Positions 241-62,494 of a stretch of 64,000 nucleotides of DNA are shown piece by piece (positions within the stretch are counted from its first letter, which is position 1; each line of letters starts with the position of its first letter). The notes below the pieces were generated by a model, which did no database searches, had not been told where the DNA came from, and was given only the letters and a program-made list of their open reading frames with translations. Made by a program: the position numbers and the translations under genes. Source of the stretch: an uncultured Hormoscilla sp. (GTDB lineage Bacteria > Cyanobacteriota > Cyanobacteriia > Cyanobacteriales > Desertifilaceae); the NCBI GenBank assembly GCA_963921275.4, contig OZ001293.3, positions 5,024,001-5,088,000 of the forward strand, given 5' to 3'.

Positions 241-255
241 ACCGTTCCGGAAAAA
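241..255 (-). mobile_element. 15-nt micro-insertion, variant E (TTTTTCCGGAACGGT)
   Basis: Exact second copy at 58577-58591. Both follow CCGA on the minus strand and contain a CCG-GAA-CGG mini-hairpin. Confidence 0.6.
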
Positions 256-475
256 TCGGTCGGTACATTCATCAAGGGATGGTAGGGGGCGTGAGTCAGC
301 AGGATCGAGGGTGATAGCGGGACTTTGAGATTTTCTCAGGCAAAAAACGGCTTCTTAGCTTACGGGGTGTGGATTTTACGTCGAAGGGGTGAATCGGCAG
401 CAAACCCGCTCGCCTGGGTCGAGCTCGACCAGCTCGACCCCACTGTGGCTCCAATACTTCAAGGGCATTTTATTT

Positions 476-713
476 GTCATTGCGAGGGGGGGGTACCGTG
501 GCGATTAACTTATGCTCAAGCGAGTTAACCCCCCCCGAAGCAATCCCCCTCGCCCTGTATGAGATGAAGATCATGCGCGGCGTCGTCGGTGAGATTGCTA
601 GCCCTCCTGGCGTCGGGCCGCTGCGAAGGCCGGGGGGATCATCGCTTGGAGCCCTAAAATGTCAGTTTTAATTTCCCCCTGGCTCCGGACAGATTGTTAA
701 CCGAGAAGTATTG
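476..713. repeat. REP/MITE-like palindromic repeat (GTCATTGCGAG...GAAGCAATC...GAGATTGCT) carrying a variant-B micro-insertion
   Basis: Related inverted copy at ~24505-24795 and partial copy at ~26485-26600. Confidence 0.55.
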
Positions 714-761
714 ACTGTGGCTCTGTGAAAGGGTTTGATGCCATTTTACGCCTATTTTTTC

Positions 762-1844
762 TCAAAGTCCCAATAGACTGATCCATGAGGTGATACGACT
801 CTTCCGTTCCTCTTCACGACTCATCCGTGAGCGATACGACTCATCCGTGAGCGAGTACAACTCTTCCGTTTCTATGAGCATTCTGGGTGGAGCAGTCGGA
901 GATATTACTGGTGTTCCGGACTGTAGATGGCTTCTCGCTCTGACCCTATATGGATATGACTCCGGTAGATGTAGACGTGGTGCCGCGGTGATATCAGGCT
1001 GGGCAATTTTTGCCAACTAAGTTTTAACCGTTTTCTTGCTTCACTTTCCACTCTTTCAATTGGAAAGCGAAGATTTCGGACATCGTCATCCCATAATACT
1101 TCCGGAGCCAGATATTCTAACACCCCCAAGGAGTCTAGCAATTCGATGCGCTTGGTTAATTTGACCTAGCTCTTGGGATCGCGCCCGTAGATATGTTGCT
1201 TCATCCGGTCTTCGATCAGTGACATTGTACCAGTCTGTTGGGATAACTGAAAATAATCACTGTCAATCAGTTCCGCACTGCGATCGCGCAATTCCTGAAG
1301 CAAAGTATCTACTTCGGTATCTGACCTCCCCTGCCATGCTAATATTGCTTTCAGTTTGGCGACTGTTCTCAGATATGCCTCTGTATTGCGATAGGGTTCA
1401 ATCCCCTTAATGAAATCATAGCTTAAACCTGCCTCGTTAAACAAGAACAAAAAGCTGATTTTCCGATTAAAGAAGTCTAACTGACTCTGCCATCCTTGGA
1501 CTGCTAAATACTCCCGACTCCCAAAAATCTGTACAGCAAGTTTAGCCTCTTCTGTGCCAACCTGCTGAGCGAACTTTTACCTGATTGTTGCTAAACTTGC
1601 TGTCTGTCACTTCAAATGGAGGATCCTCGAACAATATCTCGATGCTTTTTTGGTGCAACTCCTGTAGTAATACTTCCACTTCTGGCAGTTGTAAGCCACC
1701 TTTTTTTAACTCCTGTTCTAGGGTCTCTACTGTTTTCACATAGTCCTTTTGGCGAGTCTGACGCGATCGAGTCCAGTAGCTCTGGGCCTGCAGATAAACT
1801 GGACGGGCTTTCACATAAGTGATGTCAAACACCACTAAGCCCAC
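762..1844 (-). pseudogene. Fragmented gene(s) of unknown function
   Basis: Consecutive short minus-strand ORFs with an internal repeat (EVEVLLQELHQKSIE / EVDTLLQELRDRSAE). No family recognised. Confidence 0.3.
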
Positions 1845-1920
1845 ATTGTTCTACTTCATACACCAGGTATTCTGCAAAGCTAATGCTCTTGGGCAAATTC
1901 TCAACGGTCGAATGTACCAT
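1845..1920 (-). pseudogene. 5' remnant of a third Uma2-family paralog
   Basis: MVHSTVENLPKSISFAEYLVYEVE and its upstream DNA match the starts of the genes at 2887 and 3874. Confidence 0.7.
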
Positions 1921-2095
1921 ATCTTTTTTCCCTCTTTTCTTCGATCTGATTATAACATATTAATTCAGGTGGCAGAGCTTCTATATTCTCGCGGGCGAAT
2001 TTCTGTCCCAGGCAGAACCTGGAAACGAGGCTTTGCGCTCTTACCAGTGCCCGATCGCCAGGGAAGCGATCGCCTGTCCAAGGGGACGCAAGACA

Positions 2096-2887
2096 TCAGT
2101 TAATTGTATCAGGATTTATCCCCAGGGCCCGTAACCGTTGAGCTAATTGTTCGGCACGTTGACGTTCGGCATTCCTTTGCTGTTCAATTTGTTGTCGCAG
2201 TTCTTGTTCGGCCTCAGCACGTTCACTTTCCCCCTCAGCACGTTGATTTGCTGCCTCAGCACGTTGACGTTCCTCCTCAGCACGTTGATGTTCCTCATCA
2301 GCACGCTGTTCCAGTTGTTGTCGCAGTTCTTGTTCTTCTTGGAACAACTCTTCTACAACGGGTGGAGATAGTACTTGATTTACAGGTAAAGTAAATCCTG
2401 GAAACTGTACAGATTGGACATCATCTCCTGGTAAAAAATCCCTCACGGAATAAATTTCTTCACCTGAAAATTTACTACACAGCCTGATCCTAGACTGGTT
2501 CGGGTCTACTATCCAATACTCAGGAATATTAATCCTATCGTATTCTGCCCTTTTGTTGAAGTAGTCCTGACGCCAATTTTGACTGGTCACTTCTACCACT
2601 TTCCAGAGACTGTGAGTACAAACCACTACATCTGGAATTCTCGATGTCTTCTCTTCTGTTCTTACTCCCGTAAAGGCTTTTGCTATTAATCTCATTTTTT
2701 GAGAGCTAAAGTAGCGACGAAACTGATCGCTTAAAAATTCACAAATATTGGTGTGTAAACCTGTTGTTGCCATTTCGATCAACTGACCGCGATAAAGTTC
2801 GTATCTTACACCATGTTCTACTTCATAAACCAGGTATTCTGCAAAGCTAAGGGTCTTGGGCGAACTTTCAACGGTCGAATCTACCAT
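2096..2887 (-). CDS. Uma2-family (DUF820) putative endonuclease with coiled-coil tail; carries an in-frame 19-aa deletion
   Basis: RIPDVVV, VVEVTS and IPEYWIVDP motifs; QRAEEER heptads. Lacks KVCARKGAAVLDFDEKPLL, which is present in the adjacent paralog. Confidence 0.8.
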   Translation of the reverse strand: MVDSTVESSPKTLSFAEYLVYEVEHGVRYELYRGQLIEMATTGLHTNICEFLSDQFRRYFSSQKMRLIAKAFTGVRTEEKTSRIPDVVVCTHSLWKVVEVTSQNWRQDYFNKRAEYDRINIPEYWIVDPNQSRIRLCSKFSGEEIYSVRDFLPGDDVQSVQFPGFTLPVNQVLSPPVVEELFQEEQELRQQLEQRADEEHQRAEEERQRAEAANQRAEGESERAEAEQELRQQIEQQRNAERQRAEQLAQRLRALGINPDTIN

Positions 2888-3065
2888 ATCTTTTTCCATC
2901 TTTTCTGCGATCTGATTATAACATATTAATTCAGGTGGCAGAGCTTCAATATTCTCGCGATCGGGCAAATTTTATTTCCAGATTCTGCCTGGAAACGAGG
3001 CGTTGCGCTAGAGACAGATCCTGATCGCGAGGCAAGCGATCGCCGGTCCCAGGGGAGGCAAGACA

Positions 3066-3874
3066 TCAGTTAATTGTATCAGGATCTATCCCCAGGGCCT
3101 GTAACCATTGCGCTAATTGTTCTGCACGTTGACGTTCGGCATCAGCACGTTGACGTTCGGCATTCATTTGCTGTTCGAGTTGTTGTCGCAGTGCTTGTTC
3201 GGCATCAGCACGTTGACGTTCGGCATCAGCACGTTGTTCGAGTTGTTGTCGCAGTTCTTGTTCCTCTCGGATCAACTCTTCTACAACCGGTGGAGATAGC
3301 ACTTGATTTACAGGTAAAGTCAATCCCGAAAACTGTACAGATTGAACATTATCTCCTGGTAAAAAATCCCTCACTGAGTAATTTTCTTCACCTAAAAATT
3401 TACTACACAGCCGAATCCTAGACTGTTCTGGGTCTACGATCCAATACTCGGGAATATCAATTTGATCGTATTCTGCCCGTTTGCTGGTGTAGTCCTGACG
3501 CCAATTTTGACTGGTTACTTCTACCACCAAGAGCGGTTTTTCATCAAAGTCTAGCACTGCTGCGCCTTTTCGAGCACAAACTTTTTTCCAGAGACTCTGA
3601 GTACAAACAACTACATCGGGAATTCTCGATGTATTCTCTTCTGTTCTTACTCCAGTAAAGTATTTTGCTACTAAGTTCAGGTTTTGAGACCCAAAGTAGC
3701 GACGAAACTGCTCCGTTAAAAATTCACAAATATTGGTGTGTAAACCTGTCGTTGTGGCATTTCGATCAACTGACCGCGATAAAGTTCGTACCGAACACCC
3801 GGTTCTCCTTCATAAACCAAGTATTCTGCAAAGCTAAGGGTCTTGGAAGAAATCTCAACTGGAGACTGTACCAT
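3066..3874 (-). pseudogene. Uma2-family paralog, frameshifted near 3750
   Basis: Tandem duplicate of 2096-2887. The ATG at 3874 is out of frame with the C-terminal ORF 3066-3557. Confidence 0.8.
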
Positions 3875-4144
3875 ATCTTTTTCCCTCTTTTCTCTAATTT
3901 GATTATAACATAGTAATTCATGTGTTAGAGCCCTGGGAGGGGCGACATTCTCCTGACTAGGCTTTGCCTCTAGATTCTCGTGACTAGGCTCTGCCTGGTC
4001 ACGGATTTTGGGAGGCAGAGCCTCCAGGCTTAACTAGAGGCTCTGCCTGGTGTAATTTCATTCCCAGGCAGAGCCTGGGAACGAGGAAAGAGCCTGGGAA
4101 CGAGGGAAATCACGCCTGTCCAGTGATACTTGAGCGGGCTACAA

Positions 4145-6535: not shown

Positions 6536-6971
6536 AATTATTGGTTTGTATCATCCTCAACACGAGCAAGGCCGGGTTTTTATGGAAGTGTTTTTCAAGT
6601 AAGTTTTTGAGTGAGGGGAACGCTGCGCGAAAAATAGAACTGTGCGGCTGACAACGGTCGCTCCTTTTTTCGCTTTTATCACATGAGTGATATAGTCCCC
6701 AAGATGGCGAAAGTAGTTCTTCCTACCATTAGCTAATCGAGTTCGATATGGGTAAATAATGCTTTAAATTATTACATGAAAAGGGTTTGAGCGAATCGGC
6801 AGCCACGGAAACTTACCAGCAGCAGTGGAAGTCACCTGCTGCATATGCTTGTGGCCCCGAAGACAAACCTGCTTGGTGGAGAATGGGTATGCTTTTCTCA
6901 CATGAATTAAGCAACATTTTCCTGGTTAAACTCACGTGAATGATATTTTGCGGCCACATATATCTAGATTA

Positions 6972-7290
6972 AAGTCACATTGATTGAGAAAATAGTCACA
7001 TGACTCTATGACAAAGTCACATGAAGTGAGAGCTTTTTCACGTGACTCTATGGCAAAGTTGCGTTACTCTATGGCAAAGTAACGCAACTTAAACGCAGAG
7101 TTGCGCAACTTTATTGCAGAGTCATGCAATTTAAACGCAGAGTTGCGCAACTCTATTGCAGAGTTACGCAACTTAAACGCAGAGTCACGCAACTTAAACG
7201 CAGAATCACGCAACTTAAACGCAGAGTCACGCAACTTAAACGCAGAGTCACGTTACTTAATATACTGGTCATGTGACTTTTACGCAGATG
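6972..7290 (+). repeat. Degenerate 21-nt tandem array (GCAGAGTCACGCAACTTAAAC; AESRNLN heptads)
   Basis: 21-nt period is directly visible; in-frame stops occur in the 5' part. Confidence 0.75.
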
Positions 7291-7327
7291 ATCCGATAAC
7301 AGTTGCTCAAAACCTCATGTAAGGGTT

Positions 7328-9945: not shown

Positions 9946-10036
9946 AATGTCCTCCTTGTTCAGTAGGTTCGTAGGTGGGGTTGACGCCAGGAAACCCCAA
10001 CAAAGATCGCAGTAACACGGGTTGGGTTGAGGAACG

Positions 10037-10907: not shown

Positions 10908-11203
10908 AAACCCAACCTACAGCCATTAGCCATTCGCAATTAGCAATTAGACCATTTTGTCAAAATGTGGTTACAATTTTTAACCATTATCCTATTAGTC
11001 GGTTTTAACCGACTTTAGCTATTAGCCGGGGGTTTGAACCCCCGGCGGGCTGACGGCGGGCTGACGGCAGGCTGACAGCGAAGTGAGTAAGTTCGGTTGA
11101 CGCCAGTTTTTAGTTCGTAGGTTGGGTTGACGCCAGGAAACCCAACAAAGATCGCAGTAACACGGGTTTGCTTGAGGAACGAAACCCAACCTACAGCCAT
11201 TAG

Positions 11204-11347
11204 CTAAAGTGCTTACTACAAACCTTCGGAAGCACTAAAGTGCTTACTACAAACCTTCGGAAGCACTAAAGTGCTTACTACAAACCTTCGGAAGCACTAA
11301 AGTGCTTACTACAAACTGCAAACAAAGGTTCGTAGTAAGCACTTTAG
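11204..11347. repeat. 31-nt tandem repeat (3.6 units) plus an inverted copy
   Basis: CTAAAGTGCTTACTACAAACCTTCGGAAGCA units start at 11204, 11235, 11266 and 11297. Related motifs occur at ~23030, ~23490 and ~51150. Confidence 0.8.
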
Positions 11348-11362
11348 TCCTTCTTAATAAGG

Positions 11363-13775
11363 TCACTTCCACTCCCGCACTTCGGGCATATCCTGACCGT
11401 GCTTTGCGATATAATGCTTGTGTTCGATCAGCCGATCGCGGATATTCTGTTTAGCATAAGCAGCAGCATATCCCAATTGGGGCACCCGATCGATCGCATC
11501 CGCCGCTAGGTGAAAGCGATCAAGGTCATTGCGGACGACCATATCAAAGGGAGTAGTAGTAGTACCCTCTTCCTTATAGCCTCGGACATGGAGATTTTGG
11601 TGGTTAGTCCGGCGATAGGTAAGGCGATGGATCAGCCAGGGATAGCCGTGATAGACGAAGACGATCGGTTTATCAGTAGTAAAGATAGTATCGAAGTCTC
11701 GATCGGACAGACCGTGGGGATGTTCGCTTTGAGGTTGCAGGGTCATCAAGTCAACCACATTCACCACGCGGATCTTCAGTTCCTGAAATTGTTGACGGAG
11801 AAAGTCCACTGCTGCTAGAGTTTCCAAGGTAGGAACATCCCCAGCGCAAGCCATCACCACATCGGGTTCCGAACCCTGGTCGTTACTGGCCCATTCCCAA
11901 ATGCCAATTCCAGCAGTACAATGCTCCATCGCCGCCTTCATGTCCAGGTATTGTAAGGAGGGTTGCTTACCCGCGACAATTACATTCACATAGTTGCGGC
12001 TCCGCAGACAATGGTCGGTCACGGACAGGAGAGTATTAGTATCAGGGGGTAGGTAAACCCGAATCACGTCCGCCTTCTTGTTGATTACGTGATCGATAAA
12101 GCCAGGGTCTTGGTGGGAAAAGCCATTGTGGTCTTGTCGCCAGACATGGGAAGTCAGCAGGTAGTTCAGAGAGGCGATCGGGCGACGCCAAGGAATTTCG
12201 TTGCGAGTAGTTTTCAGCCACTTAGCATGTTGGTTAAACATGGAGTCGATCAGGTGAATGAACGCCTCGTAGCAGGAGAAGAAGCCGTGGCGACCGGTGA
12301 GGAGATAGCCTTCCAGCCAGCCTTGGCAGGTATGTTCGCTGAGAATTTCCATCACCCGACCGTTGCTAGCCAGGTGGTCGTCTTCGGGGAGAAAATCAGC
12401 TACCCAGGTGCGATCGGTGGCTTCAAACAGGGCGCTGAGACGGTTAGAAGCAGTTTCGTCGGGACCGAACACCCGGAAGTTGGTCATGTTTTGCTTCATC
12501 ACGTTCCGCATAAAACCTCCCATGACTCGGATGGCTATGGCTGCGCCACGCTGCGCGATCGGCGAAGGTGGTGGCTGGTTTGGAGACTTCGATCCCATAG
12601 TCCCGGAAGTCGGGCATTTTCAAGTCCCTCAGCAGGATGCCACCGTTAGCGTGGGGGTTGGCACCCATGCGCCGACCGCCCTTGGGTGCCAGTTCTGCCA
12701 ATTCTGGAATTAATGTGCCATTCTCGTCAAAGAGTTCTTCGGGTTTGTAACTCTTCATCCAGTCTTCCAGCAGTTGGACGTTTACTGGTTTCGTTGCCAT
12801 TTCCGAGAACGGTACTTGGTGACTGCGCCAGTAATCTTCCGTTTTCTTGCCATCCACTTCCTTGGGACCTGTCCAACCCTTGGGCGATCGCAAGACAATC
12901 ATCGGCCATTGGGGGCGCTGGGTAAAGCCCTTGCGGCGGGCATCCTGCTGAATGGCTTTGATATCTGCGATCGCCCGTTCCAGGGTGGCCGCCATCAACT
13001 GGTGCATAGTTTCCGGGTCGGACCCCTCAACAAAATAGGGTTTATAACCGTAACCGACAAACAAGCTTTCCAACTCTGAATGGGAGATCCGGGCCAAAAC
13101 CGTAGGATTAGCAATTTTATAGCCATTCAGGTGTAAAATGGGCAGGACCGCACCATCATGAACCGGGTTAAGGAACTTATTAGAATGCCAACTGGTAGCC
13201 AGGGGACCAGTTTCCGCCTCCCCGTCACCAACAACGCAAGCAACGATCAAGTCCGGGTTATCGAAAGCAGCGCCATAAGCATGAGAAAGAGCATAACCCA
13301 GTTCGCCCCCCTCGTGGATAGAACCCGGGGTTTCCGGGGCTACGTGACTGGGGATCCCGCCGGGGAAAGAGAACTGCTTGAAAAGTTTCTTCATCCCCTC
13401 AGCATCCTGGGAAATATTCGGGTAAACTTCAGTGTAAGTACCCTCCAGGTAAGTATTAGCAACCAACCCGGGACCGCCATGACCCGGACCTGCAATATAG
13501 ATAATATTCAGGTCTAGAGCCTTAATCATCCGGTTGAGGTGAACGTAGATAAAATTAAGACCTGGAGTAGTGCCCCAATGTCCCAACAGCCGAGGTTTAA
13601 CATGTTCTAGTTTCAGAGATTCTTTGAGCAGGGGGTTGTCAAACAGATAAATTTGTCCCACCGAAAGGTAGTTCGCCGCCCGCCAGTAAGCATTCATCGA
13701 GCGCAACTCTTCTGGGGCGAGGGTTTTTTCTGAAGTTATCGCCGTAGCTATGGGTCTTTCCGTTGTAACTGTCAT
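11363..13775 (-). pseudogene. xfp: Phosphoketolase, frameshifted by a 22-nt insertion
   Basis: [16 protein letters not shown] and [17 protein letters not shown] motifs are split over two frames. Removing 12537-12558 restores ...[13 protein letters not shown]. Confidence 0.92.
12537..12558 (-). mobile_element. 22-nt micro-insertion, variant A (TCGCGCAGCGTGGCGCAGCCAT)
   Basis: Other copies at 14436-14457 and 24540-24561; all lie in a CCGW^AGC context. Confidence 0.85.
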
Positions 13776-14043: not shown

Positions 14044-14704
14044 ATGAGCTTAAAATTGTATTTTATCCGACATGGGGAAACGGTTTACAGCCAGAAAGGG
14101 GGCTACTGCGGCTCCCTAGATCCGGAGTTAACCAGCGTGGGGATAAAAATGGCAGAATAGTTTGCCGCAGCCTATCATTCTCTCCCCTGGGTAGCAGCCT
14201 ATGTAAGTCCCATGCAGCGGACGATCGCGACGGCGAAACCCTTTATGTGCAGCAGTGGGACTGGAAATGCAACTGCGGGAGGGCTTAAAAGAGATAGCCT
14301 ATGGGAAGTGGGAAGGTCAGTTACCAGAAACGGTAAATAGAGATTTCCACGATGACTACGTCCGCTGGTTAACGGATCGGGTTGGAATGCACCGACAGGG
14401 GGGGAAAGAGGAGTAGATATCGCCCGTCGTTCCGTTCGCGCAGCGTGGCGCAGCCATAGCAGTGATTCACGAGATATGCGAGAATTATCAAACAGGCAAT
14501 GTTTTGGTAGTCTCCCACAAGGCAACTATTAGAATAATGCTATGTAACCTATTGGGAATAGATGTGGGACGCTTCCGCGATCGCATAGCCATGCCAGTTG
14601 GGGGAGTCAGCCTGGTGGAGTTAGGAGTTCACGGTCCTCTGATGCATGCATTGGCAGACCGCAGCTATCTGGAGGAAAACCTGTGATCTTTACCTGGTCA
14701 TTAA
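14044..14704 (+). pseudogene. Histidine phosphatase (phosphoglycerate-mutase family), multiply disrupted
   Basis: RHGET and VVSHKATIR motifs; TAG at 14158, frameshifts, and a 22-nt insertion at 14436-14457. Confidence 0.85.
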
Positions 14705-14932: not shown

Positions 14933-16149
14933 ATGAAAATATTGGTACTAAACGCGGGTTCGGTTCTCAGAAAAGTTGTCTGTATGAAATAGCTGAGAAG
15001 ACATTACCCCAACAACCTCCCAAACCACTTTGGGAAGCGAATATAGACTGGAGTGGAACGCTGCGCGAAAAATCGACAGATTTTGGAGAAATGAAGGTTA
15101 AAGCTAAAGGAGTTAAGCTAGAAGTTAAACTGCCAGGGCGAGAAGGGGCAATCGCCCAAATGCTAGAGACTCTCAGTCAGGAAAAAACCCAGGTATTGCA
15201 GCAGTTATCAGAAATAGATATCGTCGGACATCGGGTGGTACATGGAGGTGCAGAATATACGAGGGCTACCTTCATTACTCCCGAAGTTAAAGAGGCGATC
15301 GCCCGCCTAGTACCCCTAGCACCCAGTCACAACCCAGCCCATTTAGAGGGAATAGAAGCGATCGAGGAAGTATTAGGCAAGGTGCCCCAGGTAGCAGTAT
15401 TTGATACAGCCTTTCACAGCCAGATGCCGAAAGCCGCTGTAGTGTATCCGATCCCCTACGAGTGGTTTGAGCAAGGCATCCGTCGCTATGGGTTTCACGG
15501 CACGAGTCATAAATATGCATCAGGAAGGGCGGCCCAAATACTGGGAAAATCCCTAGGAGAACTGCGACTGATTACTTGTCATTTGGGCAATGGCTGCTCC
15601 TTGACAGCCGTCAAGAATGGAGTAAGTATTGATACAACAATGGGGTTCACGCCCCTGGAAGGGTTAATGATGGGAACTCGCAGTGGTTCCATCGACCCAG
15701 CAATCATAATCTACTTGATGCGCCAGCATAATTACGACGTCGATAAATTAGATCGAATGCTGAACAAGGCTTCGGGGTTAAAAGGAATTATGGGAAAATC
15801 CGGAGATATGCGCCATGTTTTGCAGGCGATCGCCGAGGGTGACGAACAGGCGCAACTGGCCTTTGACATGTACGTGCATCGCCTGCGTGCAAGCATAGGA
15901 TCTATGGTTGCGAGTCTGGGCGGTTTAGAGGCGATAGTCTTTACCGCAGGCGTTGGCGAAAATGCAGCAGCAGTAAGGGAGGCCACTTGCGCCGGGTTTG
16001 AGTTCCTGGGGTTGAAACTGGACAAAGAAAAAAATCTCTCATCCCCAAAAGACATAGATATTGCTACCCTAGACTCAGCGGTGCGCGTGTTGGTGGTGCA
16101 GACAGCAGAAGATTGGGCGATCGCCTGCGAATGTTGGTATCTTGGTTAA
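14933..16149 (+). pseudogene. ackA: Acetate kinase, frameshifted near codon 11
   Basis: MKILVLNAGS at 14933 is out of frame with the GHRVVHGG / GFHGTSH / FTAGVGEN body. In-frame 15-nt insertion at 15058-15072. Confidence 0.88.
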
Positions 16150-16370: not shown

Positions 16371-17738
16371 GGGTGCATCTCAGTTAGGCGATGAGTATAT
16401 TTACTCAGCAAAAGTGGATTTACTGAGTCTGATTAGGCAACTAATGCGCCATTCAGGTAGGCACAGCGATGCTTCAACACCTACGGTCCGCGGACGGCCC
16501 GAAAAATCGGCACATTCTCGGCTCGCCATTGTGCCCCCGGTAATTTCACCCTTAACCCAATTTGTTTCACCAGGGACTCAACCCGACCAGAGCCAATCGA
16601 GTGCCGAGCTGCCTGCCCGTTCGCGCAGCGGCCCGACGCCAGGAGGGCTAGCCTGGTAGTCAATGATGCGCGTCTGATGGTGCTTCAAGTAGTTGATCAA
16701 CCCTGTGGCTCCCCGACATTGCTGTTGGCGCAGATAACTAATCGCCCTCTGGGTCTCCCCTCGCCACAGGAGTGCACGGTCCGCGGACGGCCCGAAAAAT
16801 CGGATCTGCACGGTCCGCGGACGGCCCGAAAAATCGGATTGAGCCGGTGTCCCTTGCACCTTATTGGCATTTTCCATTAGGTGATACCAATCGAGCACTT
16901 CGATACGTTGTTCTGGTGTCCCGATACCACTGAAAATGTTCCACACCCCATCATGACCATCTCCGAGACCGGTGAACTGCGCCCCGAGGGGCTGGGCATT
17001 CACCCACTCAAGCAGCCCTTGATTATCCTTGAAGAAAGCCACACTGCCTTGCTCATGGACATTTAAGGCTTTGTATTCTCGCCACTCACCAGGTTGACCC
17101 TCCACGGTCCGCGGACGGCCCGAAAAATCGGTACGAAGGCGAATCATGCCGCCATCCAAGCTGAGCTCCTGAATCGGTTCAGCTATCTCTACCTCAGACC
17201 AGTCCTCTCGTTGAACAAAGCGTTGGAGCGTACTGTGGGAGATGCTCACCCCAGTCAGCATCGCGAGATCTTGTACGGTCCGCGGACGGCCCGAAAAATC
17301 GGCTCTCTGGTAAGAGGCATTGGCACTGACGACCCAACAACATTTTTCCACATACGGACTCCAACGAGTTCCCGGTTTAACTTGCAGTTGTTGGGCTTGA
17401 GCAGTGGTGAGGGTTAGTTTGCCCAGGATACTGGTCAGGGTGCGCTGTTTTCCGGTGCGGCGGGAAGTCGCCGTGTTGATAAAAAAATTCCTAGTTGAGG
17501 CCAGACGTGTTCTTGGGCAAGCGCACGAACGTTTTTCTCAATGCCTTCAAGGGTGGTGAGTTCAGTGGGGTCGGCTTCCTGGTAGAGAATCGCGGCAATC
17601 GCGTCAAGATGTTGCTGGAGTTCAGCCTGCTTTTGGGAGTTCATGGGTCAAGGGTGGTCAACAGTGCCTAAATTATGTACCGTTTTGAGGGAGACAAGCA
17701 CTATGTATAATTACTCATTGCCTAACTGAGATGTACCC
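16371..17738 (-). mobile_element. ISKra4-family IS, degenerate, carrying six micro-insertions
   Basis: TIRs GGGTGCATCTCAGTTAGGC / GCCTAACTGAGATGTACCC; 8-bp TSD GAGATCTT; LGDGHDGVW, LDWYHL and SIGSGRVES motifs. Confidence 0.88.
16483..17298 (-). mobile_element. Five exact 24-nt micro-insertions (variant C) at 16483, 16776, 16810, 17104 and 17275, plus a 29-nt variant B at 16621-16649
   Basis: TTTTTCGGGCCGTCCGCGGACCGT follows CCGA each time. Removal gives transposase-like YQRAEQD, RLRTEEG, QSEQIRALL and ENVPKVLK. Confidence 0.92.
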
Positions 17739-24503: not shown

Positions 24504-25040
24504 GCGCTGGAGGGCTAGCAATCTCACCGACGACGCCGATCGCGTAGCGTGGCGCAGCCATAGCGCTCTTTCTCTCATACGGGGCGGGGGGATTGCTTCG
24601 GGGGGGTTAACTCAATTTAGCATGAGTTAATCGCTCCGTACCCCCCTCGCAATGACAACCTATATCTTTAACCGAGAAGTATTGTAGCGGCTCCCCCCGA
24701 AGCAATCTCCAGGTGCTGAGCGTCCAGATTGCTTCGGGGGGGAATTACTCCTACTGAAAAAGGATCTCTCAATTATCCCCTCCCTCGCAATGATATGATT
24801 TACTGCCCCAAAAAACGCAGTTTCTGACCGTTCGCAGTATGTCAAAATACTGAGCTGAAAGCTAAAATTGATACTATCAAACCAAGTAACCGGTGTGAAA
24901 GGGTTAGGGAGGCTTGGGGAGGCGATCACCCACACGTAGGAGCAGAGGGCTGCCGGTGGTAGGCTCGGGAAATTACCTCACAAATCTTGGTAAAGTTCTC
25001 TCATAATAGTGGTGCTACCCAACAACCGAAAATAATTTCT

Positions 25041-26479: not shown

Positions 26480-26875
26480 TTAAGTTAACCCCCCCGTAGC
26501 GCTGCGCGCACTTCGTAAAAGCGCAGCGGCCCGACGCTAGGAGGGCTAGCAATCTCACCGACGAAGCAGGAGCGCTCTTGATCTAATACGGGGCGGGGGG
26601 ATGGTGGGCGGTGCCCTACATCTATTTGCTCTTTCCTCGATATGCGATCGCCATGCTCGTGGGCGGTGCCTACATCTAATTGCACTTTTCCCGAGATCCG
26701 ATCGCGATGCAGTCTCGCCCCATTACATTATCAAAGAATGCGACAAAATTCCGATCGTATTTGCTCTCCCTCCCCAGATTACCCTGGAATAACAGGTAAA
26801 TTATTATACTTTTACACCCAATTGCCTCAAAATAAAGTCAAATCAAAATAGCGCTCAATCTAGGAGAGATAATTA

Positions 26876-55135: not shown

Positions 55136-57506
55136 GTGCGATTCGTTTAGTGTAAACTAACTTGACACAGGTCAAGGAAGGGGACCACTAGCAGGGTATC
55201 ATTAGCCCTGACAACTTATAGATGATGGTGGTGAAAGCCCACCCCTCCAGGTGCAGGAGTGAAAGCGTAATCCCTACGGTAGCGATGGCATCAATCCGTA
55301 AAGCGGGATTAAAAGGCACCCTGACTGCTAGCCTAAACCGGTCATTGTCGAGCAAGTAACTATGATGAGCGAAAGCAAAGACTTATAAGTGTCGTCATGC
55401 AGAACCAGCGAAAATGCTGAAACGCTGGCCTAAAAGGGAAAGGATAAAGGTCATTGGCGGTTTGTCATCCGACCAATAAGCACTGACAATAAACCCGGCA
55501 TATAGAGTCCATCTAAGGTTACAACCAATCATCTATAGGAACGAAGTAAACCAGGTATGCACTCTCTACCACCGGTCGATAGGTAGAGTAGCCACCAAAG
55601 GCGCAACATCTGCTTTCATCAGGCAGGTCATACTTGGGAGAGATTTCGCGGAGAAGCAAACGACCACCGGTAATAGGTGGTATACGCTGACGCCCTCACG
55701 GTAATGTCAATTGTGAAGTTGTAAGTAGCAATGCATACGTCATAAGCACGATGAACACATCGATGAATGAATGGAAGGATATCTCCTGGCGAAAGCTGGA
55801 ACGGGTAGTCCTCAAGTTGCAAAAACGAATTTACAGAGCGGCACAACGTGGCGACAAGCGGACAGTTCGCAGGCTCCAGAGGTTACTGGTAAAATCCCGG
55901 TCAGCCAAATGTCTAGCGGTACGACAGGTAACACAGGACAACCAGGGAAAAAAGACTGCCGGTGTGGACGGTGTAAAATCACTGACCGTAGAACAACGTC
56001 TAGAACTGGTAGGACAAATAGAAATCTCAAACAAGGCCAAACCCGCACGACGAGTGTGGATACCAAAGCCAGGGAGAGACGAAAAACGCCCATTAGGGAT
56101 ACCGACAATGTACGACCGTGCGACACAGGGGTTGCTAAAAATTGCGCACTTATCCTGAGTGGGAAGCGTACTTTGAAGCAAACTCCTACGGCTTCAGACC
56201 GGGAAGGGGATGCCACGACGCAATCGGAGCAATCTTTATTAGTATCAACAAAAAACCCAAATGGGTGTTAGATGCTGACATCGCAAAATGCTTAGATAAA
56301 ATTAACCACAAAGCGCTAATGGAAAAACTAAATACAACATCACCAATCCGTAAACAAATACGGGCATGGTTAAAAGCCGGGGTGATAGACAAGAGAGAAT
56401 GGTATGCAACCGAAGAGGGAACACCTCAAGGTGGAGTCATATCACCATTACTGGCAAATATAGCCCTACAGGGGTTAGAAAGAGCAGTAATAGAAATTGC
56501 CAAAACACAAAGAGAAAAGAAAAAACTGACAGTAGTCAGATATGCCGACGACTTTGTGGTAATGCATGATGAGAAAAAGAAGGTGGAAGAAGCACAAGTG
56601 GTTATAGCGAAATGGCTAAAGGGGATTGGACTAGAACTTAAGCCTGAAAAGACGAAGATAGCTCATACGCTGCACGGCGATAATCCAGGATTTGATTTCC
56701 TAGGATTCAACGTAAAGCAATATGAGGTAAGTAAAAACAAAAGCGGTAAGAACAACGGACAACCCCGAGGTTTCAAAACCCTCATAAAACCCAGTATAAA
56801 GTCCATAGGTAAGCAGAAAGAAAGGCTAGCGGAAGTACTGGCCAGCCATAAAGCAGCTCCGCAAGCTGCCCTGATAAACAAACTCAACCTAATAATACGG
56901 GGATGGGCAAACTATTACAGGACTGTGGTAAGCAAAGAAACTTACACAGATATGGACACCTACCTATGGAACATCCTGTGGAATTGGGCAAAAAGAAACA
57001 CCCCAACAAATCAAGTGAATGGATAGCCAAAAAGTACTGGACAATAAACCAGGACGTCGAATGGAGATTCAAAGAAGGGGAAGCCAAACTATACCAACAT
57101 GCAAGTACTAAGATAGTAAGGCATATCAAAGTAAAAGGAACAGCTAGCCCATACGACGGGAACCTCACTTACTGGAGCACTAGACTAGGCAGGAACCCAG
57201 AATTGAGCAATCTAGTAACAAAGCTGCTCAAAAGGCAAAAAGGGAAATGTCAATACTGCGGACAGACATTCAGAGATAGCGACAAGTGGGAAGTAGACCA
57301 CAGTAAGCCACTCTCATTAGGTGGTAAGGACCGGTGGGATAATCTACAACTACTACATAAACACTGCCACGACATAAAGACTGCCAATGATGGTAGCAGC
57401 CGTATCCGTGACAAGGATGGCATTACTGAGGAGCCGGATGAGGTGAAAAGCAGATCGTCCGGTTCTGAAGACTCCTCGGGGAGGTGACTCCCTGGCTTAG
57501 TTTAAT
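55136..57506 (+). mobile_element. Full-length group II intron with a frameshifted IEP
   Basis: GTGCGATTCG...TTAGTTTAAT; EBS1 TGTCAT pairs with 5' exon ATGATA. Confidence 0.93.
55751..57500 (+). pseudogene. ltrA: Intron RT/maturase/HNH ORF in three pieces
   Basis: Frameshifts near 56150 and 57000; YADD retained. Confidence 0.9.
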
Positions 57507-58360: not shown

Positions 58361-59731
58361 GTGGAAGTGGTCGTTACTGGCATTTGTCTGGTGTCAGCTT
58401 TAGGGATGCTACAGACCAGTTGGCAGCGCCTGATCGCTGGTGAATCTGGCATCAGGCTTTCACAACCTTTTCGGGAACTGCCACCACGACCTCTGGCCCT
58501 AATTGGCAAAACTCCGATGTATCCTGGTGCTGCATCTCCTGGGAGCTTGATGTCCCCCGGACGCACTTCGATGCCTACCGTTCCGGAAAAATCGGGATGC
58601 TACGCTGCGCGAAAAATCGCAAAAACCTACGATGCCTTCCGGACGCACGGCGAAAACCCGGAAGGCATCGCTCAGACATCGTCGAAACCCGGGGGACATC
58701 ATCTGAGCACTACCCAGGAGATGCAGTGCGCTAATCCCACAACCCAGGATACCTCGGCAGCTGACTTAACTACTCTCACTCAGCTGGTGGTGACCGAGGC
58801 GATCGCCGATGCAGGTCTAGTCCTACCATTGCCAGATGCTGGGGTGGCGATCGGGTCTAGTCGCGCTCATCAGGCTTCCTGGGAACAGCTAGCTAGACAA
58901 TTACAAGAGGATTCTCTCATGTCCGGTGCCCATTGGTTGGATACCCTTCCGCATATGGTGGCGATCGCCTCGGCCCGGACGATCGGCTCTACTGGTCCGG
59001 TGTTAGCGCCAATGGCTGCTTGTGCTACGGGCCTCTGGGCGATCGCCCAAGGCTTCCATCTGATCCAGACTGGTCAATGCCAGCGGGCTATCGCCGGGGC
59101 AGTGGAAGCTCCGGTGACGCCCTTAACCCTGGCAGGCTTTACCCGGATGGGAGCCTTAGCTGCCACTGGTGCCTATCCTTTTGACAAAAATCGCGAAGGT
59201 TTGGTTTTGGGGGAGGGTGCAGCTGTCTTGGTGCTGGAGTCAGCAACGGTAGCTAGGCGTCGCGGAGCCCCTATTTATGGACGAGTGCTCGGGTTTGGCT
59301 TGACAAATGATGGTTATCATGCTATTGCGCCCCAACTGGGAGGCAAGAGAGCGATCGGGGCTGTGAAGCAATGTCTGGAGCGATCGGGCCTGGAGACAGC
59401 TGACATTGACTACATCCATGCTCACGGCACCAGTACGAGGTTGAATGACCAGAACGAAGCAAAATTAATTCAATATTTATTTCCTCAAGGCGTTCCTGTC
59501 AGTTCCACCAAGGGAGCTACAGGTCACAGCCTGGGAGCATCTGGGGCCTTGGGAGTAGCTTTCTGTCTGATGGCGTTACAGGAGCAGCTATTGCCCCCTT
59601 GTGTAGGATTGAAAGCACCAGAGTTTGATTTAGATTTACTGATGGCACCGCGTCGGTGTCAGGTGCGGCGAGTGCTGTGTTTGAGTTTTGGCTTTGGGGG
59701 CCAAAATGGGGCGATCGTCTTAGGAAAGTAA
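58361..59731 (+). CDS. Beta-ketoacyl-ACP synthase (FabF-like) with an ~81-aa repeat-derived insertion
   Basis: [23 protein letters not shown] and SFGFGG motifs all intact. Confidence 0.88.
   Translation: MEVVVTGICLVSALGMLQTSWQRLIAGESGIRLSQPFRELPPRPLALIGKTPMYPGAASPGSLMSPGRTSMPTVPEKSGCYAARKIAKTYDAFRTHGENPEGIAQTSSKPGGHHLSTTQEMQCANPTTQDTSAADLTTLTQLVVTEAIADAGLVLPLPDAGVAIGSSRAHQASWEQLARQLQEDSLMSGAHWLDTLPHMVAIASARTIGSTGPVLAPMAACATGLWAIAQGFHLIQTGQCQRAIAGAVEAPVTPLTLAGFTRMGALAATGAYPFDKNREGLVLGEGAAVLVLESATVARRRGAPIYGRVLGFGLTNDGYHAIAPQLGGKRAIGAVKQCLERSGLETADIDYIHAHGTSTRLNDQNEAKLIQYLFPQGVPVSSTKGATGHSLGASGALGVAFCLMALQEQLLPPCVGLKAPEFDLDLLMAPRRCQVRRVLCLSFGFGGQNGAIVLGK
58514..58759. repeat. Four-level nested hairpin repeat plus two 15-nt micro-insertions, in frame
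   Basis: Arm pairs: CCGATGTATCCTGG/CCAGGATACCTCGG, CTGCATCTCCTGGG/CCCAGGAGATGCAG, GATGTCCCCCGG/CCGGGGGACATC, CGATGCCTTCCGG/CCGGAAGGCATCG. Confidence 0.85.
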
Positions 59732-59775: not shown

Positions 59776-59997
59776 ATGCTAAAGACACATAGACAAAAAG
59801 CGATAATCCAGTCCGGAGGTGTGATAAGTATTAGCTCGCCAGAACTTCCAGCTGGTACGATAGCAGAGGTGATTGTGATTGTGGATGCATCGATTGAAGA
59901 GCCTAAAAAGTCCTTAACTAGCTTCATTGGGGCTGGTAAAGGTAGTTTGGCAACGCCAGAAGAAGCTGATGATTTTATCCGTCAACTGCGAGGATAA
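59776..59997 (+). CDS. Probable antitoxin, followed by a PIN toxin remnant (59997-60110)
   Basis: SFIGAGKGSLATPEEADDFIRQ; next ORF reads RVYQDTNIWIY then stops. Confidence 0.65.
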   Translation: MLKTHRQKAIIQSGGVISISSPELPAGTIAEVIVIVDASIEEPKKSLTSFIGAGKGSLATPEEADDFIRQLRG

Positions 59998-60110
59998 TGA
60001 ATATCTTAAACGCTATCCAGGGAAGGCGGGTGTATCAAGATACCAACATCTGGATTTATACCTGAGAAGAATATCCGACCTTTGTCACTGATTTAAGGGA
60101 ATTATTTCAA

Positions 60111-60570
60111 ATTTATGGACGAGTGCTCGGGTTTGGCTTGACAAATGATGGTTATCATGATAACGCGCCCGAACTGGGAGGGAAGAGGGCGATCGCAGCT
60201 GTCAAGCAATGTCTGGAGCGATCGGGCCTGGAGAGAGCTGACATTGACTACATCCATGCTCACGGCACCAGTACGAGGGAATGACCAGAACGAAGCAAAA
60301 TTAATTCAATATTATTTCCTCAAGGCGTTCCTGTCAGTTCCACCAAGGGAGCTACAGGTCACAGCCTGGGAGCATCTGGGGCCTTGGGAGTAGCTTTCTG
60401 TCTGATGGCGTTACAGGAGCAGCTATTGCCCCTTTGTGTAGGATTGAAAAGCACCAGAGTTTGATTTAGATTTACTGATGGCACCGCGTCGGTGTCAGGT
60501 GCGGCGGGTGCTGTGTTTGAGTTTTGGCTTTGGGGGCCAGAATGGGGCGATCGTCTTAGGAAAGTAAGTA
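60111..60570 (+). pseudogene. Frameshifted duplicate of the fabF-like 3' end (59273-59735)
   Basis: Near-identical direct repeat with several indels. Confidence 0.9.
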
Positions 60571-60675
60571 AACGTTCCTTACAGACAATTTATTTATCTT
60601 TAGAAGCAACCGCGCTTACTTATTTTTTCCATCGTTTTGAGAATAAATAAAAATCACGAAATTTAGAGGAGGCAA

Positions 60676-61368
60676 GTCATTCTCATTCAGTTTACAGATT
60701 TCAACGCTGCTTGTACTATCATCAGTACCGACTGCAATTCTCAATGGAACGATATTAGCAATGTACTCGATGCTATGCCACTACACCTAAAAGCTTCATC
60801 CCAGGCGGGACTTCAAGGCTATCCCATTTTCGATCCTGTAGGAACGAATGAATACATCAAAACCGAATTAGTTAACCTGGGATGGGAACCGAATAGTCCC
60901 ATTCCCAAACAATACAATTTTTTAGGAACCCATATTGATGCTGGTAAAGCAGGCGCGATCGTCGAGAATCAATTTTCCAACTATCCGTTTCTTCTCAATA
61001 ATACCATAAGATCCGATTTTTCGGGCCGTCCGCGGACCGTGCTTTTCTTTAACGCTGAGACCATGTTTTCTGGGTCAGCCACTAAACTGGTAATTATTAT
61101 CACAAAAGCTCATATGTTTCCTGCTTCTAACAGCACTCTATATTACGAACAAGCTGTCAACTGGTTGACAGCATTAGCTCAATATAATGTATTTGATGTA
61201 CCAATACGACTTGTGGGGTTGTTTGCACCGCAAAATTATACTGTATCTGTAAAATGGACTGTGTACCAGGCACAACGATCAAGAACTGTGATCGCGCAAC
61301 AAAATCGCCAATGCCAAATCATTTCCGGAACTAGACCTGACAGTCGTTGTGTTCTGAATTTACTCTAG
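60676..61368 (+). CDS. BglII-like type II restriction endonuclease, probably inactive
   Basis: MPLHLKAS, IFDPVGTN, QFSNYPFLLNNTIRS, HMFPASNS.LYYEQA and YNVFDVPIRLVGL match R.BglII as recalled. 24-nt insertion at 61017-61040. No canonical start codon after the RBS. Confidence 0.8.
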   Translation, partial: VILIQFTDFNAACTIISTDCNSQWNDISNVLDAMPLHLKASSQAGLQGYPIFDPVGTNEYIKTELVNLGWEPNSPIPKQYNFLGTHIDAGKAGAIVENQFSNYPFLLNNTIRSDFSGRPRTVLFFNAETMFSGSATKLVIIITKAHMFPASNSTLYYEQAVNWLTALAQYNVFDVPIRLVGLFAPQNYTVSVKWTVYQAQRSRTVIAQQNRQCQIISGTRPDSRCVLNLL

Positions 61369-61384
61369 CAACAATAGGTTAATT

Positions 61385-62494
61385 CTACAAGTCAAGCTCC
61401 AGTTGCTGATTTTTCGGGCCGTCCGCGGACCGTGCAACTTGAGTTTTTTCTGGTGTCTTTTTTCCCTTTCCATTCAGCGTAGAATCTACTGGACGTTCTT
61501 CCCCTCGTAAATCAGCAGCAAAGGCTGCTTCTTCATAATATAATCTTTCTTCCATTTCCTGCAAGTGGTATTCTTCTGGGTATATCTTTGCCTTTGAACG
61601 TTCCGACGGTCTTTTCCCAATTTGGACGTCAAACCGGAATTTATCAATAGGTTCACCCGTTCTTTCTATGTAGTTTCGCAAGGTTTTCAAGTTTGGAAAA
61701 CATCCATTTTCATCTGGTTCACCACTCAGACGCCGCATCGCTATTTGATGATAGGTTGGATTCATTTCTGCACCGATAAAATGTCGTTCCCAGTCTCTGG
61801 CAACAACTGCTACTGTACCAGCCCCCATATAGGGATCGAAAACTACTTCATTTTTGTAAGTTGTTGCTAAAATAATTCTCGCTATCAAGTCTTCTGGAAA
61901 TTGACAAGGATAAATTGTTTGTTCTTCGTGGTTGTGTTTGACATTCGAAAATAACCAGATATCCCCAGGATTTTTTCCCTTTGGGTTACAAGATAGTTGA
62001 CCTTTGCGATCTCCTCGGTAATGTTTTTTATTCTGGTATTTCTGCGGTACTCTAATCTCATCTAGATTAAAGGTATAGTCTTTAGATTTCGTAAACCACA
62101 AAATTGTTTCGTGGCGACAGGAAAATTTATTTTGCGCGTGCAGTTCATGTTGTCTAGCCCAAATAATCCGGTTTCTGGGAATTAATCCACAAGATTCTAT
62201 AATTGGGAAAAAGCGGATATCTAAGGGAATTAACATTCCCCGATCTGAAAAAGCCCCTATTTGCAAAAATAGCGCTCCAGTCTGTTTGAGAATTCTGCTA
62301 CATTCTTTTAGGACAATAGTCTGTTCTCTTAAATAATTATCCAATGCTTGCTTAGCTTCGTATTCCTTACCTAAATTATAACGTGGCGAGGAGACAACTA
62401 AGTCCACACACTCATCAGGTAATTCTTTGAGTACATTCAAGCAATTTCCTAGAAATATTTTGTCCAGCGGTAGTTTTTCTTTATCCATCGTCAT
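61385..62494 (-). CDS. Beta-class N4/N6 DNA methyltransferase, cognate of the BglII-like enzyme
   Basis: Motif IV reads SPRY (SPPY expected); motif I FDPYMGAGT; 24-nt insertion at 61410-61433. Confidence 0.85.
   Translation of the reverse strand: MTMDKEKLPLDKIFLGNCLNVLKELPDECVDLVVSSPRYNLGKEYEAKQALDNYLREQTIVLKECSRILKQTGALFLQIGAFSDRGMLIPLDIRFFPIIESCGLIPRNRIIWARQHELHAQNKFSCRHETILWFTKSKDYTFNLDEIRVPQKYQNKKHYRGDRKGQLSCNPKGKNPGDIWLFSNVKHNHEEQTIYPCQFPEDLIARIILATTYKNEVVFDPYMGAGTVAVVARDWERHFIGAEMNPTYHQIAMRRLSGEPDENGCFPNLKTLRNYIERTGEPIDKFRFDVQIGKRPSERSKAKIYPEEYHLQEMEERLYYEEAAFAADLRGEERPVDSTLNGKGKKTPEKTQVARSADGPKNQQLELDL

Follow-up and report, generated by a model that had tools for sequence, protein, structure and literature searches.

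How repeats shorter than 30 nt move has been a standing question since 2008, when Elhai et al. reportedly described the small dispersed repeats SDR1-8 in Nostoc/Anabaena. The 64-kb stretch analysed here (hereafter the window), from a sponge-symbiont Hormoscilla, offers a cleaner handle on it, as it holds many hairpin modules of 15-29 nt, some of them within genes. A sequence-only reading had taken five variants, A to E, for one structure-defined family of mobile micro-insertions and for the best candidate there for an undescribed system. The first claim is supported by empty alleles and by stems that are swapped yet remain paired; the second was overstated, since SDRs, one of which inserts into HIP1, have been known in Nostocaceae since 2008. 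Overall, this is a real SDR-like micro-mobile family, whose elements are among the smallest mobile DNA seen.

Architecture and copy number of the elements

All five variants are exact repeats, and their copies lie where the sequence-only reading had placed them (Table 1). Element C, of 24 nt (TTTTTCGGGCCGTCCGCGGACCGT), has seven exact copies in the window, five on the minus and two on the plus strand; a 7-bp stem (CGGGCCG/CGGACCG), which contains a single G.A mismatch and is capped by a TCCG loop, describes it better than the earlier CGG-[12]-CCG. The 15-nt elements D (T5-CGC-GCA-GCG-T; three window copies) and E (T5-CCG-GAA-CGG-T; two) occur there on the minus strand only, while the 22-nt A has three copies, one carrying a C>T change, and the 29-nt B a single copy. 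Two further stretches that had been read as variants of B turned out to be native to a larger repeat, R, and not 29-nt inserts.

Table 1. Elements and associated features of the window.
Feature	Position	Strand	Description
E1	241..255	-	T5-CCG-GAA-CGG-T, 15 nt, inserted 3' of CCGA
B-like stretch	600..628	-	native to repeat R (copy 543-700); no separate insert
D1	6620..6634	-	T5-CGC-GCA-GCG-T, 15 nt, preceded by TCTA
xfp (phosphoketolase)	11363..13775	-	two ORFs because of A1
A1	12537..12558	-	22 nt, two hairpins, 3' of GCCGA; frameshift in xfp
A2	14436..14457	+	22 nt, 3' of CCGT
ackA (acetate kinase)	14933..16149	+	D2 in frame; separate small frameshift right after codon 10
D2	15058..15072	-	15 nt, adds TLREK to AckA
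Decayed IS transposase gene	16440..17640	-	contains C1-C5 and B1
C1	16483..16506	-	24 nt, 3' of CCGA
B1	16621..16649	+	29 nt, 3' of CCGT
C2	16776..16799	-	exact C copy
C3	16810..16833	-	exact C copy, 10 nt from C2
C4	17104..17127	-	exact C copy
C5	17275..17298	-	exact C copy
A3	24540..24561	+	C>T variant, within repeat R copy 2
B-like stretch	26519..26547	+	native to repeat R copy 3
Nested palindromic composite	58513..58755	+	in ketoacyl-ACP synthase gene, net +243 nt
E2	58577..58591	-	in central loop region of the composite
D3	58602..58616	-	3' of GCGA, 10 nt from E2
C6	61017..61040	+	exact 24-nt insert at CCGA|G
C7	61410..61433	+	3' of CTGA, in 3' end of DNA methylase gene

The elements fall into two modular series. 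The first, T5-hairpin-T, spans 15 to 50 nt (E, E', D, C, C' and F) with stems of 3 to 20 bp and a constant target; the second consists of T-CGCGCAGCG followed by a second hairpin, for which six distinct stems were found, all perfectly paired and all closing on a GCA or GCCA loop. Stem sequences change while pairing is kept, as had been claimed: CCG/CGG in E becomes CGG/CCG in E' and CGC/GCG in D, and the G.A mismatch of C appears as A.G in C'. The 50-nt hairpin F occurs with its loop in either orientation, GGAA and TTCC; its stem includes an internal, not terminal, GTAG. Every element begins with T, the run being strictly one or five residues with no intermediate lengths, and the majority also finish in T; on the complementary strand, every element has A at its start and GA or GAAAAA at its end. 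Hairpins number one in C, D, E and E' and two, abutting, in A and B. C copies that are not exact differ for the most part by point changes.

By nearest-neighbour DNA folding, single mini-hairpins were no better than shuffles (z from -1.4 to +1.3); the case for structure is comparative, not thermodynamic. DNA mini-hairpins of the type d(GCGNAGC) are extraordinarily stable as oligonucleotides, and a GCGCAGC core (N = C) is present in the first hairpin of D, A and B and in most second hairpins; that closing pair is absent from E, E' and C, and the motif is not itself a mobile element.

Enrichment over dinucleotide-shuffled sequence (100 shuffles), the check that had been proposed, was confirmed. 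C and A gave no matches in shuffles even with up to three mismatches tolerated, and the degenerate D/E pattern was observed five times against a shuffle mean of 0.42 (maximum 2). Searched in its general form, CGA-T{1,5}-stem-G(N)A-stem, the motif occurred 7 times in the window (shuffle mean 1.4, maximum 3) and 88 times in four related genomes (mean 19.0, maximum 24). Besides the window, the sampled DNA took in every exact C copy of four assemblies together with its 10-kb flanks on either side (~0.9 Mb). Exact copies in these 0.89 Mb numbered 74 for C (8, 12, 45 and 2 by assembly, and 7 in the window), 26 for E, 8 for D, 6 for A and 3 for B. Among 185,579 species genomes scanned, the exact C 24-mer was confined to four Hormoscilla assemblies, and no Nostocaceae genome had it.

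Target site and empty alleles

Insertion occurs as a rule directly 3' of 5'-YCGA; in the window, D1 follows TCTA, D3 GCGA and C7 CTGA, and A2 and B1 follow CCGT. Target composition (%) was C97 C82 G99 A100 for C (n = 68), C92 C76 G100 A100 for E (n = 25) and G62 C100 G88 A100 for D (n = 8). One D copy follows CTA in place of the CGA or CGT that the sequence-only reading had given for most copies. The junctions CGATCGCG attributed to A copies were likewise seen. That A and B precede AGC was true within the window and for B generally (3/3), but not for A elsewhere, its 3' flank in other genomes reading aga, gcc or tcc. Two of the eight D copies split HIP1 as GCGA|TCGC, one base off the cut position reported for SDR5 (PMC4390886); most copies lie at non-HIP1 CCGA followed by a purine rather than at CGATCG. 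The 3' flank differed within the C family: TCG follows in 24 of the 30 contexts of copies ending in A (CGA|TCG), which have CCGA at both junctions, and in only 3 of the 76 contexts of copies ending in T, where no homology was found at the 3' junction.

Empty alleles of all five elements were found in related Hormoscilla genomes or orthologous proteins, an outcome whose absence for D, E or B the sequence-only reading had named as evidence against itself. Empty sites were recovered for 6 of 73 C copies tested (five of them between genomes, at 89-97.5% flank identity), 1/7 C', 2/26 E, 2/6 A and 1/3 B, the last between SP12 and GUM202 with an identical 29 nt and 100% identical flanks. Junctions were base-exact in every clean empty-site pair, and target-site duplication was seen in none. 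The C6 site is empty at the orthologous locus of SP12, again without duplication, and C7 is shared with GM7 and SP12 (one SNP in SP12) and hence represents an older insertion. Repeat R has three copies in the window, of which only copy 2 carries A3. An unbiased catalogue of ~120 kb of aligned orthologous DNA listed 45 indels, at least 11 of them from these element families; some one-off inserts (17-nt and 21-nt cases) match the complement of their own flank. Insertions have hit genes, IS elements and other palindromes as well as inverted copies of the elements themselves, the CCGA of inverted C copies carrying further C insertions.

These are mobile, non-autonomous micro elements of the SDR kind: it is all but certain that identical modules of 15-29 nt, and of up to 50 nt in relatives, have been copied widely to sites 3' of YCGA without duplication. 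Immobility, with the repeats due to chance similarity, assembly artefact or parallel mutation, is rejected as exceedingly improbable by filled and empty alleles with exact boundaries, by the zero shuffle matches and by the occurrence of the 24-mer in four independent assemblies.

Enzyme genes and orientation

No Y1_Tnp/Y2_Tnp (HUH) domain was detected among 39 ORFs of the window or in the 436 ORF clusters scanned (133-520 aa; ORFs of at least 110 aa) out of the 640 that lie no more than 10 kb from a C copy in the four genomes. A query with E. coli RayT returned a best E-value of 0.088 for a Pfam-negative match, and no Y1 domain marking a RAYT gene with flanking REPs was present in the scanned clusters around exact C copies (C flanks only). 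The HUH/RAYT-type ssDNA mechanism previously suggested is something we still infer.

Orientation pairs revealed no clear local strand coherence. Among pairs of T5 elements separated by over 1.5 kb on one segment, 73 had the same orientation and 53 the opposite (p = 0.09, for non-independent pairs compared irrespective of replication direction); the corresponding figures for the A family were 4 and 10.

Relation to described repeats

SDRs are the closest match by description: tiny (~20-nt), high-copy, hairpin-forming dispersed repeats of HIP1-rich filamentous cyanobacteria, with presence/absence between related genomes, nested insertions and no known enzyme. Precise insertion in or beside HIP1 is reported for SDR5 (PMC4390886), which the D copies that split HIP1 may parallel. 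SDR sizes are given as 21-27 nt (PMC13756078, PMC3116915), and no SDRs are recorded outside Nostocaceae (PMC5861425). Against these descriptions of SDR1-8, the Hormoscilla elements are set apart by a host outside Nostocaceae, a length of 15-29 nt that places D and E below the published range, a general YCGA target not limited to HIP1, and the T5 head with its modular one- and two-hairpin series. Host lineage, 15-nt size, YCGA rule and modular series are what is new.

With IS200/IS605 elements and their palindrome-associated miniatures, which move as ssDNA by 'peel and paste' with an HUH Y1 transposase, they share insertion directly 3' of a specific tetranucleotide without target duplication, hairpins that mark the element, the stem being imperfect in C (G.A mismatch), and a 3' end that is itself a target-like tetranucleotide. 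They differ in being ten times smaller and often having one hairpin, not subterminal hairpins at both ends, in having no Y1 gene near scanned copies and no clear strand coherence, and in the 3'-flank dependence of one subfamily. REP/REPIN-RAYT systems (PMC3116915; PMC3733652) are similar in that their repeats are palindromic (20-40 nt), occur as inverted doublets and have a lineage-specific sequence. The Hormoscilla elements, in contrast, end in T..T (A..A on the other strand) and not in a GTAG or CGTC tag, lie in coding sequence and not extragenically, show no RAYT in the 10-kb flanks scanned around C copies, and form doublets that resemble self-nesting and not a replicative unit. A classical MITE moved by a DDE transposase was rejected as a match, terminal inverted repeats with duplication being its hallmark and clean pairs having no duplication.

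Mechanism of insertion

The explanation we tentatively favour, at somewhat less than an even chance as a whole, is that these SDR-kind elements are moved by a trans-acting, ssDNA-cutting enzyme of HUH-like type. Such an enzyme would cut single-stranded target DNA 3' of YCGA and cut again 3' of a target-like tetranucleotide at the element end (CCGT, CCGA, GCGT, CGGT or CCAT), after which the hairpin-bearing strand would be joined in, as by IS200/IS605 or other HUH transposases at left-flank/right-end tetranucleotides. Recognition would be of the hairpin rather than its sequence, together with the T-rich head. Pairing of the target with element positions 5-8 may assist in C, E' and D, where CCGA or GCGA is complementary to TCGG or TCGC; this pairing rule is not general, because E (26 copies) uses CCGA yet has TCCG at these positions. 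Several observations count against the HUH-like enzyme, besides the negative Y1/Y2 and RayT searches: strict lagging-strand targeting would lead one to expect strand coherence, classic IS200/IS605 targeting does not predict the 3'-flank dependence of A-ending C copies, and folding with DNA parameters was no better than in shuffles. Units of 15 nt whose only stem is 3 bp long fall, moreover, far short of the minimal ends known for IS608-type elements.

Possible but doubtful is an enzyme outside both the classical HUH transposases and the reverse transcriptases (RTs), one that recognises nothing beyond a short T-rich head, a YCGA target and a hairpin of any kind (3 to 20 bp). If true, it would represent a previously unrecognised form of DNA movement, no mobile DNA smaller than the 15-nt units would be known, and the SDRs of Nostocaceae, with their connection to HIP1, may depend on the same chemistry.

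Retro-insertion, in which small RNAs that read A-hairpin-(A)5 from the complementary strand would be copied by one of the many group II intron RTs, primed at a nick 3' of YCGA, is unlikely. The window does contain seven matches to group II intron domains 5/6 and at least two RT-maturase-HNH genes, with one more in L042, and the A start and GA/GAAAAA end of the complementary strand would fit a transcript's start and its short A tail. The invariance of the T-run, however, argues against retro-insertion, as do the point variants that predominate among non-exact C copies in place of a truncation series at the end distal to the T head; a promoter-bearing master copy was not found. To our knowledge, insertion of foreign 15-nt RNAs by group II RTs has no precedent.

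Unlikely, too, is movement with no dedicated enzyme, by replication template switching or short-patch gene conversion in which a nascent ..YCGA pairs with TCGG/TCGC of a resident copy. The target-element complementarity in C, E' and D counts for it; A-ending C copies with CCGA at both junctions resemble a microhomology product, and the flank-complementary one-off inserts and the two orientations of the F loop point the same way. Yet E breaks the complementarity, A and B have no TCGG and keep the same target, the 76 T-ending contexts lack 3' junction homology, and all clean pairs have base-exact junctions.

We regard as very unlikely that a HIP1/CGATCG-directed nuclease, restriction-like or a Uma2 PD-(D/E)xK enzyme, cuts CGA^ and that repair then joins stable hairpin oligonucleotides into the break. 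The split HIP1 sites of D and the CGA|TCG contexts of A-ending copies agree with it, and Uma2 genes are frequent in the sampled DNA; Uma2 abundance is general across cyanobacteria, though, and no specific link was found. Targets are mostly CCGA plus purine, and a source of the oligonucleotides is not known. Directed cutting at HIP1 was proposed earlier to account for the SDR5 insertions there (PMC4390886).

How the elements move can be approached through a one-line target rule (YCGA, with the cut behind the A and no duplication), exact element boundaries, a graded set of natural variants (15-50 nt; one hairpin or two; stems exchanged), which indicates what recognition requires, and at least five closely related genomes with widely differing copy numbers. 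Together these make a comparative enzyme hunt and a simple oligonucleotide cleavage test feasible.

Effects on genes

For annotation, the elements matter in two ways: they disrupt genes, such as that of phosphoketolase, and they add stop-free in-frame codons to acetate kinase, ketoacyl synthase and DNA methylase. Three intact xfp orthologues read TTFAE|AIRV across the site at which A1 splits the gene by frameshift, and the five codons that D2 adds to AckA are absent from 7/7 Hormoscilla-like orthologues. The decayed IS transposase gene has taken up five C copies and one B copy. The composite in the ketoacyl-ACP synthase gene adds 81 codons with the frame still open; the site is empty in GM7 and holds a 45-nt core hairpin in SP12.

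Recurrence and folding of the micro-insertions

The micro-insertions of Hormoscilla, a sponge-symbiotic filamentous cyanobacterium, are a real family of micro mobile elements, active or recently active. All five variants distinguished by the sequence-only reading (A, 22 nt; B, 29 nt; C, 24 nt; D and E, 15 nt each) were confirmed as exact repeats at the positions it had assigned to them. The enrichment over shuffled sequence that it proposed to test was also observed: C and A were absent from the shuffles, the degenerate D/E pattern occurred 5 times against a shuffle mean of 0.42, and a generic search for CGA-T{1,5}-stem-G(N)A-stem returned 7 matches in the window (shuffle mean 1.4) and 88 in four related genomes (shuffle mean 19.0, maximum 24). 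This excess is carried by few discrete sequence families, with a T-run of either 1 or 5. Nearest-neighbour folding did not distinguish single elements from shuffles, and thermodynamics, not being significant, was rejected as support for the mini-hairpins; the nested composite of copies E2 and D3 folds far better than shuffles (z = -8.6).

Two stretches previously read as separate B variants proved instead to be portions of a larger repeat, R (..GGAGGGCTAGCAATCTCACCGACGA..CTCATACGGGGCGGGGGGAT..), present in three window copies. The 3' two-thirds of element B is nearly identical to a stretch in two R copies; B may derive from R, or R may contain an old B.

Two structural series

The elements fall into two architectures. 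Series 1 consists of T5, a hairpin and a final T, and comprises E (CCG-GAA-CGG), E' (CGG-GAA-CCG), D (CGC-GCA-GCG), C (a 7-bp stem with a G.A mismatch), C' (the stem of C with A.G in place of G.A) and the 50-nt F, with a 20-bp stem and a loop of AGAA, GGAA, TTCC or GAAC; this T5 series holds only about five distinct sequences, too few for a covariance model to improve on a regex census. Series 2, of which B is a member, consists of T, CGCG(C/T)AGCG and a second hairpin, whose stem takes six forms: TGCGC/GCGCA, TGGC/GCCA with loop GCA, TGGC/GCCA with loop GCCA, CGGC/GCCG, ACTGC/GCAGT and TGCTC/GAGCA. Among the 27 distinct 16-mers lying downstream, 21 contain a perfect stem of at least 4 bp, where shuffles average 1.2; since many of these 16-mers are one element set in different flanks, the fair tally is six stems.

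Empty sites

At C6, a C copy in the window, the orthologue in the related assembly SP12 reads AAGATCCGA|GTTTTT, with the 24 nt of the window inserted at the bar. For a systematic search, the 60-nt flanks of all 127 sampled copies were joined and queried against other genomes, which yielded spanning empty sites for 12 copies, all families together. C accounted for 6 (of 73 copies), five of them between genomes (flank identity 89-97.5%) and one a within-genome paralogue; C' contributed 1/7, and A 2/6 at paralogue level. Of the empty alleles sought for D, E and B, those of E (2/26, one clean and one a weak paralogue) and B (1/3, with 100% flank identity) were recovered; this search gave none for D (0/8), but the copy D2 is absent from orthologues. 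E' likewise had none among 4 copies. The empty-site pairs have exact boundaries and no duplication, and in one C pair the empty allele carries CCGT where the filled allele carries CCGA. Pairwise alignment of approximately 120 kb of DNA gave an unbiased catalogue of 45 indels (8-90 nt), at least 11 of which belong to these families; several other hairpins were among the rest, including four elements of 72-73 nt.

These 72-73-nt near-perfect hairpins (CGTTTCC..GGAAACG and CGTGTCC..GGACACG) vary in presence between genomes; one lies just upstream of the KAS (ketoacyl-ACP synthase) gene in the GM7 assembly and is missing from the window. Further inserts in relatives include a perfect 29-nt hairpin placed mid-palindrome (GGCCCCC|GGGGGCC) and one-off inserts of 17 nt and 21 nt, each in part reverse-complementary to its own flank.

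Target rule

C, E, E', C', F, A and B have CCGA (or CTGA) at positions -4 to -1, while D targets are GCGA (5/8), TCGA (2/8) and TCTA (1/8); the downstream flanks are variable. Element positions 5-8 form the complement of CCGA or GCGA in C, E' and D; in E they do not. A rule equating the target with the 3' arm of the element followed by A fits C, E' and D and does not hold for E, A and B. TCG directly follows C-family copies in 24 of 30 contexts when they end in A, compared with 3 of 76 when they end in T (background after YCGA, 11.5%), and one subfamily therefore sits in the core of the HIP1 site, CGA|TCG. Every T5 element creates CCGA on its complementary strand, where C also inserts, which gives rise to inverted doublets.

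Effects on genes and reading frames

None of the elements contains a stop codon in any of the six frames, and lengths are multiples of three in series 1 and not in series 2. In three phosphoketolases that are intact (identity 96, 95 and 91%), the sequence across the site of the A copy A1 is TTFAE|AIRV, which places A1 as 22 nt after GCCGA and accounts for the two overlapping xfp (phosphoketolase) ORFs of the window. Translational hopping over A1 was dropped as pure speculation. D2 and E2/D3 were placed through orthologue searches, PDB alignments being too distant: the motif DWSG|STDFG of 7/7 Hormoscilla-like acetate kinases becomes DWSG-TLREK-STDFG at D2, and the KAS composite adds 243 nt in the window and a 45-nt core in SP12, both multiples of three with the frame open. 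The window ackA (acetate kinase) gene has, independently of D2, a separate small frameshift right after the codons NAGS (14955-14970). The phosphoketolase-acetate kinase gene pair, intact in relatives, is disrupted in both its members in the window genome.

Candidate mechanisms

We rank first a trans-acting ssDNA cut-and-join enzyme, which would move the elements by cutting at 5'-..CCGA^TTTTTCGG..CCGT^.. (^, presumed cut), because the elements follow the formal logic of HUH single-strand transposons, with a tetranucleotide fixed on the left flank, a similar tetranucleotide ending the element on the right, recognition of hairpins, and insertion without duplication. Several observations count against this model, namely the pairing rule broken by E, the dependence of the A-ending subfamily on its 3' flank, and the orientation of the elements, whose coherence is not significant. 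So does the lack of a Y1/Y2 domain among the 436 ORF clusters scanned (of 640 near C copies) and 39 window ORFs, as well as the result with an Escherichia coli RayT probe, whose best match (E-value 0.088) fell on an ORF that overlaps a C copy (locus L038) and was negative in Pfam.

The rivals to such an enzyme are retro-insertion by group II reverse transcriptases (RTs), which are abundant, template switching without an enzyme, and HIP1-directed cutting. TnpB was rejected as a source, since the fragment 240 nt upstream of a C copy in assembly GUM202 belongs to an IS607-like element (MerR-type HTH with TnpB), beside which C appears to be a further insertion. A comparison of the dead IS region with a plasmid collection gave a sole, uninformative match of 147 nt at 69% in a Kovacikia plasmid.

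Distribution and comparison with known repeats

The exact C 24-mer was found in 61 stretches of genome_contigs, all within four Hormoscilla assemblies; with overlapping loci merged, exact copies numbered 8 in GM7, 45 in SP12, 12 in GUM202, 2 in the sediment bin and 7 in the window. No Rfam family covers the elements.

The nearest described things are the small dispersed repeats (SDRs) of Nostocaceae, likened here by the citing papers' descriptions and not by sequence; by that measure the Hormoscilla elements are a variant of the SDR kind whose target rule is clear and whose structural series is modular. According to these papers, SDR5 is 21 nt long (PMC13756078), SDRs were not found outside Nostocaceae (PMC5861425), and the REPIN authors count SDRs among unexplained repeats (PMC3116915). 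No title or abstract opening among the papers listed by full-text searches describes the present elements, and term look-ups in two Hormoscilla genome papers (PMC6520454, PMC7313196) gave no such description.

Gene content of the window

The window has a G+C content of 46% and 34 HIP1 sites, and its 57.6-63.1 kb portion is 98% identical to the Hormoscilla sp. GM7CHS1pb assembly, from which the window is nevertheless distinct. Its genes include phosphoketolase, acetate kinase, GlgB, an intein-bearing GyrB, several group II intron RTs and Uma2 nucleases.

Coordinates of repeats, hairpins and other features in the window and related loci
Feature	Location	Strand	Remarks
Repeat R	window 543-700	-	
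Repeat R	window 24505-24640	+	
Repeat R	window 26519-26640	+	
72-73-nt hairpins	L045 (GUM202) 11698, 12108, 14014		
72-73-nt hairpin	L058 (SP12) 762		
29-nt hairpin	L044 (GUM202) 3237		
IS607-like element	window ~37000-39350		decayed; TnpB fragments
MerR-type HTH ORF	window 38565-39128		of the decayed IS607-like element
IS607-like copy	L032 (GUM202) 10266-12372		C element downstream of TnpB fragment
GyrB intein	window 31849-35091	+	Intein_splicing domain between GyrB and Toprim domains
Group II intron domain 5/6	window 10039-10115, 20484-20560, 27772-27849, 41078-41156, 48557-48633, 49974-50050		7 Rfam matches at six places
Exact 300-nt repeat	window 10031-10330 = 49966-50265		
Exact 300-nt repeat	window 19866-20165 = 47939-48238		
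RT-maturase-HNH gene	window 27778-29556		intact
RT-maturase-HNH gene	window 56142-57487		split
CRISPR-DR28 (Rfam)	window 26058-26081	+	single match, 36.6 bits (threshold 35); no array evident
21-nt-unit tandem array	window 7003-7296		at least 10 copies, 64-82% identity
Tandem repeat	window 27157-27557		3 copies of ~100 nt, HIP1 inside
Tandem repeat	window 63130-63559		3 copies of ~150 nt
Uma2-family nuclease genes	window 1542-3931		

The Uma2-family nuclease genes are three diverged paralogues in tandem with internal 63-nt repeats, and the related loci are likewise rich in Uma2 genes.
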